Shown: positions 2,950-10,211, numbered from the stretch's first letter. The stretch: 26,293 nt of DNA from a virus (UHGV-0165251); one strand, 5' to 3'. The notes: generated by a model from the letters alone, not told the origin. Numbers and translations: made by a program.

Positions 2950-3581
2950 CCTTCACAGTTGTAATCACGACATCCTTCAAAATCATATGGGCTGTACTGC
3001 CAGGTAATTTTTCCGCAATGCGGACAATTCCAGCGCACCTTACCGCTTCGCGACTTTTTTCTTCTGTTTTGTTTTTTCAACCAGTCAGGTATGACCAAAC
3101 CTGCGCCCTGAACCATTGTTCTGCGGTTAAAATTATTGATATTGAACGTCCGGCGCTTTGCTGCATCGGCAATGGAAAATGGCAACCAAACTATTCCTGG
3201 CTCGTTTTTGTTGGCGACGCTAAAGATGGTTGCTTTACTGAAGTCATCTGTTGGCAATCCACCGTGTTGAAGCCAGTAAACATCGTTGCCGTTCCAGCTA
3301 CCTTTTTTGTAGGCCACATACGCAGTGCAATCTGACTCAATCAGGCTTTCTGTAGGGATGTACTGGCAATCAACGTGCCACACAGCCATTGCATCCACGC
3401 TATCAGCACAAACAGGCTGATCGATATCTCGCCCACAATTCCAGGCTTTTTGGGCTTCTTCCTGCGTGTAAACATGTGCGCGATCGATATCAGAACTGTA
3501 ACCATTGCCGTTATGGCAATGGAATGAGGCGTTAGTACCCACAGTTTCACGCAAGCACATCATGTAAAAGCGGTTATTCAC
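2937..3581 (-). CDS. hypothetical protein with a C-terminal Cys-rich zinc-ribbon-like motif
   Basis: 214-aa ORF; CPHCGK...C..C...C at the C terminus; start overlaps the upstream stop (GTGAATAA); no family recognised. Confidence 0.6.
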   Translation of the reverse strand: MNNRFYMMCLRETVGTNASFHCHNGNGYSSDIDRAHVYTQEEAQKAWNCGRDIDQPVCADSVDAMAVWHVDCQYIPTESLIESDCTAYVAYKKGSWNGNDVYWLQHGGLPTDDFSKATIFSVANKNEPGIVWLPFSIADAAKRRTFNINNFNRRTMVQGAGLVIPDWLKKQNRRKKSRSGKVRWNCPHCGKITWQYSPYDFEGCRDYNCEGWRV

Positions 3582-5869: not shown

Positions 5870-6838
5870 TTAGTAGGTTATTTTTGTTGCGAATACTTCG
5901 CCTTTTACGATGGCTGTTATGATATTTTTAGCAACATCTTCTGATGCACCAACCTTGATAAGGTCAGCAAGTATTTTGTTATTTACTTCTTTCCGGTGAG
6001 CTTTATCCTTTGCTCTGCGCTCTTCTTCGTCCTTGATTCTTTTTTCTTCTGCTATTCTGGCTTGCTCTTTTGCTTCAGCATCGCGACGGATTTGTTCAGC
6101 ATCCTCCTGTGCTTTTCTGCGTTCTGCTTCAATTGCTGCCTGCTTTTCTCTTTCAGCTCGTTCTGCTGCCTCTTTTGCTTCGCGCTGTGCTCGTTGCTCG
6201 GCTTCAATGCGTTCACGCTCTGCACGTTCCGCTGCGGCCTTAGCTTCTGCTTCTCGCCTTGCTGCTGCTTCAATTTCGGCTTTTGCCTTTGCTTCGGCTT
6301 CTGCTCTGGCTTTCTCTTCAGCTTCTCTTTTTAAGCGCTCTTCATGCTCTCGCTTTTCCCGCTCCGTTTTGAGTCTTGCCTCTTCTCTTTGGCGGTCAAA
6401 TTCGCGATCCATCAAAATCGCTATTTCATGGTCAGACTCAATTTGCTTTGCGAGAGCTTCAGCTGCTGCCTTAGCTTCTTCTTCGGCTTTAATCCGCGCC
6501 TGTTCTTCCTCATAATCAGTAAGAGGCTGGCGTGCCTTGGCTTTCAGCTCATCAAGGCGATCACGCACTGTCTTGCGGTTAGCATCAATTAGCTTTGGAA
6601 TTTCTTTCAGTTCAGCAACAAGGTCTTTGCCAAGACCATCGAGATATGTTTTCGTCTGCGCAACTTTATACGCCAGAGAAGCGATCTCCTTTCTGCCCTT
6701 TGCCGTTGTGATATCAGGCACAAAGGACATAACTTCACGTTCAACCTTTTGAAGGATTTCTTCAATCTGGTCGGAAGACTGAAATACAGTCATTGCATTT
6801 GCTTTTTCAATAACAACTAAATCTGTTACTTCACTCAT
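5870..6838 (-). CDS. hypothetical coiled-coil protein with a long charged E/A/K/R-rich central region
   Basis: 322-aa ORF; ggagga RBS; ~150-aa stretch of AEAKAKAEIEAAARREAEAKAAAERAERE-type repeats between distinct N- and C-terminal domains. Confidence 0.75.
   Translation of the reverse strand: MSEVTDLVVIEKANAMTVFQSSDQIEEILQKVEREVMSFVPDITTAKGRKEIASLAYKVAQTKTYLDGLGKDLVAELKEIPKLIDANRKTVRDRLDELKAKARQPLTDYEEEQARIKAEEEAKAAAEALAKQIESDHEIAILMDREFDRQREEARLKTEREKREHEERLKREAEEKARAEAEAKAKAEIEAAARREAEAKAAAERAERERIEAEQRAQREAKEAAERAEREKQAAIEAERRKAQEDAEQIRRDAEAKEQARIAEEKRIKDEEERRAKDKAHRKEVNNKILADLIKVGASEDVAKNIITAIVKGEVFATKITY
5996..6400. repeat. low-complexity purine/pyrimidine-skewed repeat DNA encoding the charged repeat region
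   Basis: Imperfect reiteration of ctgcttc/ttctgc/ttttgc units; generates spurious long ORFs in other frames. Confidence 0.6.
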
Positions 6839-6850
6839 ATATCCTCCGTC

Positions 6851-6876
6851 AAAAAATTGCCCTCACATCGGAGGGC
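6851..6876 (-). terminator. rho-independent terminator
   Basis: Minus strand ttgccctc-cgatgt-gagggcaa followed by tttttt, immediately upstream of the RBS of the coiled-coil gene; the same hairpin precedes ea10 in lambda as I recall it. Confidence 0.55.
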
Positions 6877-6982
6877 AAAGAAGATTTCCAATAATCAGAA
6901 CAAGTCGGCTCCTGTTTAGTTACGAGCGACATTGCTCCGTGTATTCACTCGTTGGAATGAATACACAGTGCCTATTCGCAGC

Positions 6983-7309
6983 CTACATAATCATTCCGGT
7001 TATTATTACCATTTCAATATCACTATCTTTCATAATGATTGGTGTTGAGTTATCAACTTTACTTTTACTCCATTTTCCTGCATCAGTTTTTACCGCTCCA
7101 CAATAAGAAAGCCAATCATCATCACAATGTTCTGGATCACTGATTCTGACAAGAACTCGTGATAGTGCTTTTTCGATACTTTCATCACAATTAGCATTTG
7201 TGTAATTGCCGTGAGACAATTTCAAATCGTTAACTTCATCTTCATTGGCATCAAAAATATAGATTTCAGTCGACTCTGGAACATTTTCATAAACCATTAA
7301 AACTTTCAT
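6983..7309 (-). CDS. hypothetical acidic protein (108 aa) at the position lambda uses for ral
   Basis: ORF rich in D/E (net charge roughly -11 by my count); no family recognised. Confidence 0.6.
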   Translation of the reverse strand: MKVLMVYENVPESTEIYIFDANEDEVNDLKLSHGNYTNANCDESIEKALSRVLVRISDPEHCDDDWLSYCGAVKTDAGKWSKSKVDNSTPIIMKDSDIEMVIITGMIM

Positions 7310-7324
7310 TTTTACCCCGTATTG

Positions 7325-7352
7325 TTTATGCCAAAAATAAAGGCCTACTATG
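7325..7352. repeat. 28-bp direct repeat, copy 1 (tttatgccaaaaataaaggcctactatg)
   Basis: 27/28 identical to copy 2 at 8095..8122; the same motif lies downstream of ral in lambda as I recall it. Confidence 0.7.
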
Positions 7353-7368
7353 CGTCCTAGTAGAATGC

Positions 7369-7827
7369 CTAATTTTCTGTTTCTTGGTTGTGTCCAAAGT
7401 TATATTCAATATCTGGTGTTGATGTATCAATATTCTTCATCCCATCAACAAGAGTTGATACAACAGCCAAATCTTGTTTGATTCTCATTAAATGGTATTT
7501 CTTCCGGCGCAATAAACTTTCAATGGCAAGTTTCTTCGTTGGGAATGCAAAAGATCTTTCTGCATTTTTTGCTACTTTCTTAATTTCATATCTATTTCTC
7601 TTTTGTTTCCATTCCTGTAACCACTGATTTGGTGCTGGTTTAAAATTAACGATCCAATGCGCAGGAACCAACCATGCATAATGCTCTGTCTGATGAAAAG
7701 CTATATATTGAAGTGCGAATATTTTGATTCCATCTTCTTCAACTGTCGCCTGGAATCTCCAGAAAACAGGCATTCCATCATGTTCAGTTTCTGATTCAGG
7801 AAAAGGTACGCTCCATGATATTGTCAT
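7369..7827 (-). CDS. hypothetical protein (152 aa), second gene of the repeat-flanked cassette
   Basis: Start overlaps the upstream stop (ATGA); no family recognised. Confidence 0.65.
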   Translation of the reverse strand: MTISWSVPFPESETEHDGMPVFWRFQATVEEDGIKIFALQYIAFHQTEHYAWLVPAHWIVNFKPAPNQWLQEWKQKRNRYEIKKVAKNAERSFAFPTKKLAIESLLRRKKYHLMRIKQDLAVVSTLVDGMKNIDTSTPDIEYNFGHNQETEN

Positions 7828-8078
7828 ATCTCACCTTCAAGAGCTTTGCTGATTGCTGACAGTGCTTTCGATACTTCATCAGGATAATGGTCATTCCATT
7901 TTTGCTTGTATGCCTTGTTTAGCATCGCTTGCAGAGCTTCGAGCAAATCAGGAGCTGCCTCCATCAATCTCACATCACCTCGATGGATGGTTGTATCGTC
8001 AAACGTGAAATAAACCCCATCATCGTTAAATCCAGCGCCAACAACATTCCATGGCCTTTTCATTCTTCCTACTGTCAT
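7824..8078 (-). CDS. hypothetical protein (84 aa), first gene of the repeat-flanked cassette
   Basis: gaggtga RBS; translationally coupled to the 152-aa gene; no family recognised. Confidence 0.65.
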   Translation of the reverse strand: MTVGRMKRPWNVVGAGFNDDGVYFTFDDTTIHRGDVRLMEAAPDLLEALQAMLNKAYKQKWNDHYPDEVSKALSAISKALEGEI

Positions 8079-8435: not shown

Positions 8436-8741
8436 TCATCCCTCATACAGTGGTTTGCTGCCTAATTTCATTTTCTGGCGACCAACACAAGTCACACCCA
8501 TTTCACTGCGTGGCTTGCGGTAGTAAATACGATTCTGTTTACGCTCGACTTCTTCTGACTTCTTGCAGCGAAGGCTTCCGAGTGATGCTGCTTTATCTGC
8601 TCTGACGCAACCAGAGAGCTTTAGCGCAATTTTTCGCGCCAGTCGCTGCTCTTGCATTGCCTGTTCACGTTGAGCCTGTCTGCGTGCTCTGCGGCGATTT
8701 CTGGCGTTATCGTCAGCCAGATATGTAATGACTACTGTCAT
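8436..8741 (-). CDS. N: N-type transcription antiterminator
   Basis: N-terminal arginine-rich motif NARNRRRARRQAQRE; C-terminal YRKPRSEMGVTCVGRQKMKLGSKPL resembles lambda N (YSKPGERGITCSGRQKIKGKSIPLI). Confidence 0.8.
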   Translation of the reverse strand: MTVVITYLADDNARNRRRARRQAQREQAMQEQRLARKIALKLSGCVRADKAASLGSLRCKKSEEVERKQNRIYYRKPRSEMGVTCVGRQKMKLGSKPLYEG

Positions 8742-9494: not shown

Positions 9495-10211
9495 TCAAAC
9501 CAGCCTTAGTTTTGTCTCAATTGCAACGCCTATAATCTTGCAGTTTCCATTGATTGGCACGAGAGGCCATGCAGGGTTAAGTCCCTTGAGGTATTTATTT
9601 CCTCCGTCGATTATCAGCTTCTTGAATGTTGCCTCGTTAGAGTCAGAAAGTTTTGCTATGACCAAGCTGCCGTTGATCGCCTCCCTTCCGGTATCGAAAA
9701 GAACGAATGTTCCCTCTGGAATGCTTAACCCAACCGGTGCCGTCATTGAATCACCTTCCACTTTAAGCCAGAACGCATTACCTTGAATATGCGCGTCAGA
9801 CTCAAGCCAAACATCTATGTCTTTAATGGTGTATGGTTCGCATGCTTCACACCACGAGCCAGCCTGGATACTGCTTAACACCGGATACCTCTTTCCTGCT
9901 CTGTATTCCCCTGCATACCTTACGTTGGCATCGCTCTTAAGGCTTTCTGCCTGTTCTGCAACCTTGGCAGCAATTGACTGGCTAAAATCAGCAATTGAGA
10001 CTTGCAACAATCGTGCAAAACCAGATGCAACCTCAACGTTTAGCGCATTTCTGCCATTAAGATAATGCCCTACCGCTCCTTGGGTGATACCCAGTTCATC
10101 AGCGATTGAGTATTGGGTTATTCCCAATTCTTTCTTTTTTGACTCATACAAAGCCTTAAGCCGCTTAGCGTCTTCCAGCTGTTCTGTCGTCAGTGATTTT
10201 TTATTTTCCAT
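9495..10211 (-). CDS. cI: CI repressor (HTH domain plus LexA/S24-type autocleavage domain)
   Basis: 238 aa; N-terminal HTH (ITQYSIADELGITQGAVGHYLNG), C-terminal GDSM serine and K dyad region (GDSMTAPVG...VIAKL...TFKKL). Confidence 0.9.
   Translation of the reverse strand: MENKKSLTTEQLEDAKRLKALYESKKKELGITQYSIADELGITQGAVGHYLNGRNALNVEVASGFARLLQVSIADFSQSIAAKVAEQAESLKSDANVRYAGEYRAGKRYPVLSSIQAGSWCEACEPYTIKDIDVWLESDAHIQGNAFWLKVEGDSMTAPVGLSIPEGTFVLFDTGREAINGSLVIAKLSDSNEATFKKLIIDGGNKYLKGLNPAWPLVPINGNCKIIGVAIETKLRLV

Follow-up and report, generated by a model that had tools for sequence, protein, structure and literature searches.

A rare, mobile cassette in the pL operon of a P22-like Escherichia coli phage encodes an acidic protein of the uncharacterised PHROG 4658 family

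We analysed a 26,293-nucleotide stretch of viral DNA (hereafter the window) from an HK620/CUS-3-like (P22-like) E. coli phage and found that the minus-strand ORF at positions 6983..7309 is a genuine gene, carried by a rare, AT-rich and horizontally mobile accessory cassette in a hypervariable slot. Its 108-aa product belongs to a phage-restricted family that is already catalogued (PHROG 4658) yet uncharacterised, and its predicted fold has no solved relative. The gene would most likely be expressed early, from pL with N antitermination, and we tentatively regard its product as a candidate early counter-defence factor that may inhibit an anti-phage function encoded by the host or by a prophage, a reading whose probability we put somewhat below even.

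The gene and its acidic product

The ORF consists of 108 codons beginning with ATG and follows a short leader (7310..7348, minus strand) that moves along with it and provides, 5 nt ahead of the start codon, a GGGG Shine-Dalgarno sequence (7315-7318); no sigma-70-like promoter match was found in this leader. The GC content of the ORF is 33.0%, compared to 47.0% for the window. The identical protein WP_001554880.1 is present on 616 contigs in public data, where it is "hypothetical" throughout. Comparison of the window allele with 12 other prophage alleles revealed 3-6 synonymous and 0-4 non-synonymous differences, corresponding to a pN/pS of 0-0.16, and the product matched the PHROG 4658 profile essentially end to end (E = 2.4e-38, residues 1-108 against profile positions 2-109 of 109). 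Taken together, the full-length family match, the low pN/pS, the fold predicted with a pLDDT of 95, the Shine-Dalgarno sequence and the spread over 616 contigs established that the gene is genuine.

The composition of the product, 21 acidic (12 Asp and 9 Glu) versus 10 basic residues (8 Lys and 2 Arg), agreed exactly with the count given in the initial annotation of this DNA, which had also called the protein markedly acidic and proposed to compute its pI and predict its structure. The pI was 4.36 and the net charge about -11 (-11.3 at pH 7), making the protein the second most acidic among the window ORFs of at least 80 aa and placing its cluster among only 3 of the 87 recurrent protein clusters of ~30 related early-left regions with a pI below 4.5. 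Structure prediction with AF2 on a 35-sequence alignment, which replaced a single-sequence AlphaFold model of pLDDT 41, gave a confident model (pLDDT 95.1, pTM 0.87) in which residues 2-10 and 13-20 form a beta-hairpin, 23-32, 43-56 and 64-70 are helical, and 100-107 make up a C-terminal strand. A Foldseek search of this model against 350,542 chains returned nothing below E = 1, and the BFVD search retrieved uncharacterised family members only. We take the product to be a soluble single-domain protein; its confidently predicted fold lacks a solved relative, and for that reason it is not a member of the Ocr, ArdA, Arn, Ugi, solved sponge or anti-CRISPR families. DNA mimics are not known to share a common fold, and the missing fold match therefore lowers the case for an Ocr-like protein, not for a protein that works like a mimic.

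Sequence searches were equally unproductive. The product had no match in Pfam or NCBIfam, nor did the whole family alignment in Pfam; PADLOC gave 0 families at E <= 0.1, and no relative was found among PDB sequences with either the single sequence or the profile. The fold search did not bear out weak matches to plant ferredoxin and HORMA proteins (E = 0.025-1), which were therefore rejected. The PHROG 4658 profile, matched by 36/36 aligned relatives, is without functional annotation, and no member is named, has a Pfam domain or has a solved structure. Scanning 1.84 billion cluster representatives exhaustively with HMMER yielded 59 family representatives in the 50%-identity library, nearly all of them stand-alone proteins of 84-116 aa, and neither domain fusions nor partner genes conserved across clades were found. 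No copy with at least 60% protein identity was present among 50,697 phage genomes, and a genome-contig scan found no relative. Literature on the family was not found by accession or family name, and a peptide-string search for the protein and its relatives in the supplements of Silas et al. (10.1101/2023.04.06.535777) gave no match. Word-index homologue searches retrieved close relatives alone. The 90%-identity cluster holding the window protein (P0090/P0091) has as its representative P0091, an unrelated Cys-rich protein of 210 aa, and the first homologue search missed the exact protein because of this representative; the gene for P0091 is the upstream neighbour of the target in locus L037, and the grouping looks like a clustering artefact.

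Acidity is largely a family trait, with a median pI of 4.41 and a median net charge of -10.4 in the 69 members of at least 95 aa, and 5-6 members are near-neutral (pI 6-7.9). In at least 60% of the members an acidic residue is found at the columns corresponding to E8, E12, D20, E23, E25, E43, S44, E46, D65 and E99 of the product. The most invariant positions are non-acidic: P11 (94%), H33 (89%), Y36 (83%), N38 (94%), A48, G78, W80 (81%), T104 and G105 (100%). A short subfamily of 84-89 aa is without residues ~57-85 and without the middle helices and keeps E8/P11/E12/H33/Y36/N38/T104/G105, comprising the N-terminal motif, H-G-x-Y-x-N and the C-terminal T-G-F strand, while the near-neutral member P0085 retains the N-terminal part of the conserved motif.

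A mobile cassette inserted downstream of ral's position

The minus-strand gene order of the window runs from the repressor (9495-10211) through an N-like antiterminator (8436-8741) and three small ORFs (104, 84 and 152 aa) to the target gene, and continues with a conserved intergenic block, a 322-aa charged protein, small ORFs and Erf. The block 3' of the gene (6851..6978, minus strand, 128 bp) presumably corresponds to the lambda tL2 terminator cluster, reportedly described by Luk and Szybalski (1983). It matches lambda 33925-34045 with 97.5% identity over window positions 6851-6971 and contains three hairpins (z = -4.7 versus shuffles), the last of which (6857..6878, minus strand), ~105 nt past the stop codon, is intrinsic-terminator-like, with an 8-bp stem including 5 G-C pairs followed by TTTTTT in the DNA. 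The conserved lambda-like intergenic terminators described in the initial annotation are real. Across 5426 complete E. coli genomes the block was located at 3193 places, distributed over 2234 genomes (~40%), and Rfam gave no RNA family in the whole window. Between the 152-aa gene's stop codon and the target leader (7349-7366, minus strand) there is a weak AT-rich hairpin, CTACTA-GGACGCA-TAGTAG, followed by a T-run; it was not called by the terminator scan and might act as a weak terminator or mark a processing site.

Relative to lambda, the gene is an insertion (6972..7321, minus strand) at a spot where lambda has 13 bp (34046-34058); comparison with phage 933W placed the insertion at 6979-7348 (minus strand). 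Window positions 7322-7351 match lambda 34059-34087, the 29 bp directly 3' of ral, and the gene therefore sits promoter-distal to the ral 3' flank, downstream of ral and not in its place. The ral position assigned to the gene earlier thus holds as far as the accessory region and the vicinity of ral are concerned, and fails as to the place itself, which lies one slot further upstream. That place is occupied in the window by the 152-aa ORF (7369..7827, minus strand), a PHROG 1636 member and homologue of 933W L0079; no ral was found in the window by tblastn with two Ral proteins.

The same flanks enclose nothing in lambda and 933W, whereas in P22 the interval from ral to gene 17 contains orf78 and orf87, and in Bas106 the slot is filled by Bas106_0040/0041. 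These four are small ORFs of unknown function whose protein sequences are unrelated to that of the target. The Bas106 cassette shares with the target the leader, the RBS and the first codons (window 7293-7348 against L007 3604-3660, ~95% identical) despite the unrelated gene Bas106_0041, which places a recombination junction at the very start of the CDS.

The target has the make-up of an accessory cassette, with variable content between conserved flanks and a deviant base composition that points to a horizontal origin. In more than 20 prophage loci the shared DNA stops at 7345-7358, 36-49 bp before the ATG, regardless of the upstream gene, and the cassette was found behind at least 8 different upstream neighbours. 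These included Ral (5 loci), a 121-149-aa membrane protein (5 loci), the 152-aa L0079-like gene (3 loci), the putative nucleotide-modification gene Nmad5 (2 loci, L001 and L032), the N-like gene itself (2 loci), an HK022 Nun-like gene (2 loci, with a 47-codon ORF of doubtful reality in between) and the Cys-rich 210-aa protein (1 locus). The cassette is rare, the ORF being carried by 16/5426 complete E. coli genomes, or ~0.5% of the lambdoid slots in this species. On the downstream side, P22 gene 17 (PF17420), whose product is annotated in the P22 record with 'allows growth on Fels2 lysogen', directly follows the target in five loci.

In related prophages an intact ral directly precedes the gene for the same protein or for an 82%-identical relative (L002, L003, L021, L024 and L030); in L016 it is found two genes upstream. 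This frequency, 6/31 loci, compares with a background of ~29% (917 ral places per 3193 terminator-block places in E. coli genomes), indicating that ral and the target assort roughly independently, with no mutual exclusion. The possibility that the target substitutes for ral was rejected on this ground. The two proteins are also unrelated in sequence: Ral is a Cys-containing protein of 66 aa that belongs to PF11058, a family to which the target product has no Pfam match.

Family distribution and candidate role of the product

Relatives sharing 24-49% identity with the product occur in several settings. The homologue of Rac-like Serratia prophages directly follows the repressor gene and precedes kil and recE/recT, and in other temperate phages it adjoins xis and int. 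Homologues are also carried by Aeromonas phages, by 48-kb Klebsiella phages, one lineage of which has a Mom-family gene two genes downstream, and by RB43-, RB16- and KP27-type T4-like phages of Escherichia, Klebsiella, Enterobacter, Citrobacter and Cronobacter. RB43 carries its copy between ndd and t, an interval that in T4 holds stp and arn. RB43-type phages are absent from the list of phages with gene 42 or arn, and how such unmodified T4-like genomes avoid restriction was described as unknown by Petrov et al. 2010 (PMC2993671). The presence of the family in phages not listed with gene 42 or arn is effectively a one-clade correlation and only a lead.

The family is phage-restricted. Among 72,556 plasmid records a single match was found (H96, NZ_CP104216.1 32834-33157), full length at 33.6% identity, on a 41.6-kb Burkholderia gladioli plasmid whose size and non-mobilizable typing made us wonder about a phage-plasmid; with this one match no link to plasmid leading regions emerged. 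Loci L039-L042 contain homologues 47% identical to the target at the far end of the early-left operon, flanked on one side by a 79-aa ORF that clusters with a PGAP-annotated DUF4222 gene of L002 and on the other by excisionase-like and integrase-like genes identified by reading the sequences, a placement different from the next-to-ral placement of the target.

Because the ORF has no promoter match of its own, we infer that it is read from pL with the help of N. As the last gene before the tL2-like block, it would be transcribed during infection or induction, and its product would then bind and block, stoichiometrically, an anti-phage function encoded by the host or a resident prophage. In the mechanism that fits this scheme best, a conserved acidic face (E8, E12, D20, E23-25, E43-46, D65 and E99) would occupy the nucleic-acid-binding surface of a DNA-targeting defence protein, acting in a decoy-like or DNA-mimic-like manner. 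We hold this acidic-decoy mechanism to be unlikely as it stands, and consider it quite improbable that PHROG 4658 as a whole represents a fold family, not recognised before, of counter-defence proteins serving as acidic decoys against DNA-targeting immunity (R-M, BREX-like).

Several lines of evidence argue for the broader counter-defence role. The gene occupies a hypervariable accessory location, where its neighbours Ral, P22 gene 17, Nmad5 and Mom are counter-defence or DNA-modification genes. Silas et al. described accessory regions of this kind as anti-defence gene clusters and also found a defence-triggering gene in an accessory region that holds ral (10.1101/2023.04.06.535777). An early position recurs in unrelated phage types (Rac-like Serratia prophages and RB43), and the lack of a promoter match in the cassette favours a lytic-phase over a lysogen-expressed role. 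Rarity (16/5426 genomes, compared to 2234 with the block) and AT-richness are typical of arms-race genes; the conserved acidity of the family, with its several acidic columns, and its presence in RB43-type phages not listed with gene 42 or arn point in the same direction.

Other observations count against this role. No functional homologue was found, the protein being "hypothetical" in every source, and no solved anti-defence or DNA-mimic protein is a structural relative. The region is a general dumping ground for accessory genes, which makes guilt by association weak. ArdA/KlcA-type anti-restriction proteins are common on plasmids, from which the family is near-absent (1/72,556). The 5-6 near-neutral members would be unusual for obligate DNA mimics; the 19% acidic residues and about -0.10 charge per residue of the product fall at the low end of the values for known mimics, and the most invariant residues, which are not acidic, could mark a ligand or catalytic site instead.

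Among the alternatives, an unlikely one that nevertheless survives best is a host-takeover or regulatory factor outside immunity that would, like Kil, CIII, Ndd or AsiA, bind a housekeeping host protein of the nucleoid or of the transcription, replication, division or protease machinery. It accords with the direct adjacency of the target to kil and cIII in lambdoid and Rac-like prophages, with the location of the homologue near ndd in RB43, with the early position in every phage type examined, and with a small stand-alone domain lacking a cross-clade conserved partner gene. Generally useful takeover functions, however, tend toward wider fixation, and the target is rare and patchy, filling ~0.5% of E. 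coli lambdoid slots, in a hypervariable location that it shares with several counter-defence genes.

The reading put forward in the initial annotation, a DNA mimic directed against type I R-M enzymes such as EcoKI and working as a ral analogue at the ral position, would be a special case of the counter-defence role and is decidedly less probable than the role itself. The pI of 4.36 and net charge of -11, the acidity kept in most of the family, the location in an accessory region containing ral, the Mom-like anti-restriction modification gene near the Klebsiella-phage homologue and the RB43-type phages, which are not listed with hydroxymethylcytosine genes or arn, would all suit such a mimic; we rate it quite unlikely, given that the gene lies downstream of ral's position, that ral co-occurrence (6/31 versus ~29%) shows no substitution pattern, that the product resembles no solved structure in fold or sequence (Ocr, ArdA, Arn and Ugi included), and that near-neutral members exist while plasmids are virtually devoid of the family.

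A small-molecule binder or small enzyme built around the polar cluster E8, E12, H33, Y36, N38, W80 and T104, such as a sponge for an immune signalling nucleotide or a metabolite modifier, would make the charge incidental to the mode of action. The most conserved columns are indeed polar or aromatic and not acidic, the motif survives in the 84-89-aa short subfamily, and its N-terminal part is kept in near-neutral P0085. This proposal appears very doubtful: the fold is not similar to the Tad, Acb and Apyc families as represented in the PDB or to any enzyme, anionic nucleotides would be disfavoured as ligands by the net charge of -11, and the role of the conserved Gly, Pro and aromatic residues may be structural only.

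Lower still we place a defence or superinfection-exclusion gene guarding the infected cell or lysogen from other phages. Such a function would recall sieB in the same region of lambdoid phages, and rarity and mobility suit defence as well as anti-defence, but the target belongs to the repressed pL operon and lacks a promoter match of its own, the family is also present in strictly virulent T4-like and 48-kb Klebsiella phages, PADLOC gave no match, and the product is a small soluble acidic protein in which Pfam, NCBIfam and PADLOC detected no effector domain. Finally, a spurious ORF or decaying non-functional remnant, in favour of which nothing speaks except the missing annotation, is effectively refuted by the end-to-end PHROG 4658 match, 59 divergent family representatives, purifying selection among alleles, a predicted fold of pLDDT 95, a good Shine-Dalgarno sequence and an identical protein on 616 contigs.

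In its general character the candidate counter-defence factor resembles T7 Ocr, plasmid ArdA and T4 Arn, which are likewise small, acidic and expressed early, Ocr and Arn being phage accessory genes as well; the likeness to Arn extends to location, the RB43 homologue occupying the ndd-t interval where T4 has arn and stp. The shared strong negative charge is accompanied by no sequence or fold homology to these three proteins, charge density is lower in the target than in known mimics, and some members of the target family are neutral. Lambda/P22 Ral (PF11058), by comparison, shares with the target the pL accessory region and is often its immediate neighbour, the target lying one slot downstream and co-occurring with ral. 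Ral has been described as hyperactivating a type I methyltransferase (10.1101/2023.04.06.535777). With Tad1/Tad2/Acb2-type sponges the target has no fold similarity to any solved representative.

If the product is a counter-defence factor, it would enlarge the phage anti-immunity repertoire by a new family with a new fold, and the ral-to-gene-17 interval of lambdoid and P22-like phages would be a slot worth mining; the slot is easily located, being bounded by the 128-bp block in ~40% of complete E. coli genomes. If the family consists of acidic decoys, it might help to explain how the apparently unmodified RB43/KP15-type T4 relatives escape restriction (PMC2993671). Its presence in RB43-type T4-like and Klebsiella phages has some relevance to phage-therapy host range. 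The target is one among very many uncharacterised small acidic phage early proteins and, as such, a good candidate for an anti-defence screen, not a discovery in itself.

Proteins encoded around the cassette

Two further acidic proteins, the P22 gene 17 family (pI 4.1) and DUF2528 (pI 4.3), recur directly downstream of the target and terminator block (L021 6472-6783, L030 6480-6848 and other related loci) and, together with the target, make up the only three of the 87 recurrent clusters with a pI below 4.5, suggesting that acidic proteins cluster in this stretch of the pL operon. Both resemble the target in size (103-122 aa) and acidity (pI 4.1-4.3). A remote homology of the target family to P22 gp17, raised by a similar N-terminal pattern, was rejected after hhalign gave a probability of 0.3% and Pfam no match.

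Beyond the terminator block, the 322-aa protein (5870-6838, minus strand; PHROG 1376) contains a long, central, highly charged E/K/A/R-rich stretch and no Pfam domain, and its PGAP name in a related prophage is "cell envelope biogenesis protein TolA". Upstream, the N-like antiterminator (8436-8741, minus strand) carries the arginine-rich motif NARNRRRARRQAQREQ near its N-terminus, with a good match to PHROG 271 and a weak one to Pfam N_peptide (E = 9e-4, below the curated cut-off). In L020 (5438-5776) and L034 the N position ahead of the target cassette is occupied by an HK022 Nun-like protein (...SRDRRRIARWEKRIAYALK...). The 84-aa ORF two genes ahead of the target (7824-8078, minus strand; PHROG 1273) shares the C-terminal motif AAPDLLEALQ...SKAL.GE with Bas106_0041 (L007 3343-3621) and with a 69-aa ORF that neighbours the target in L016, showing that this small family recurs within the same accessory region.
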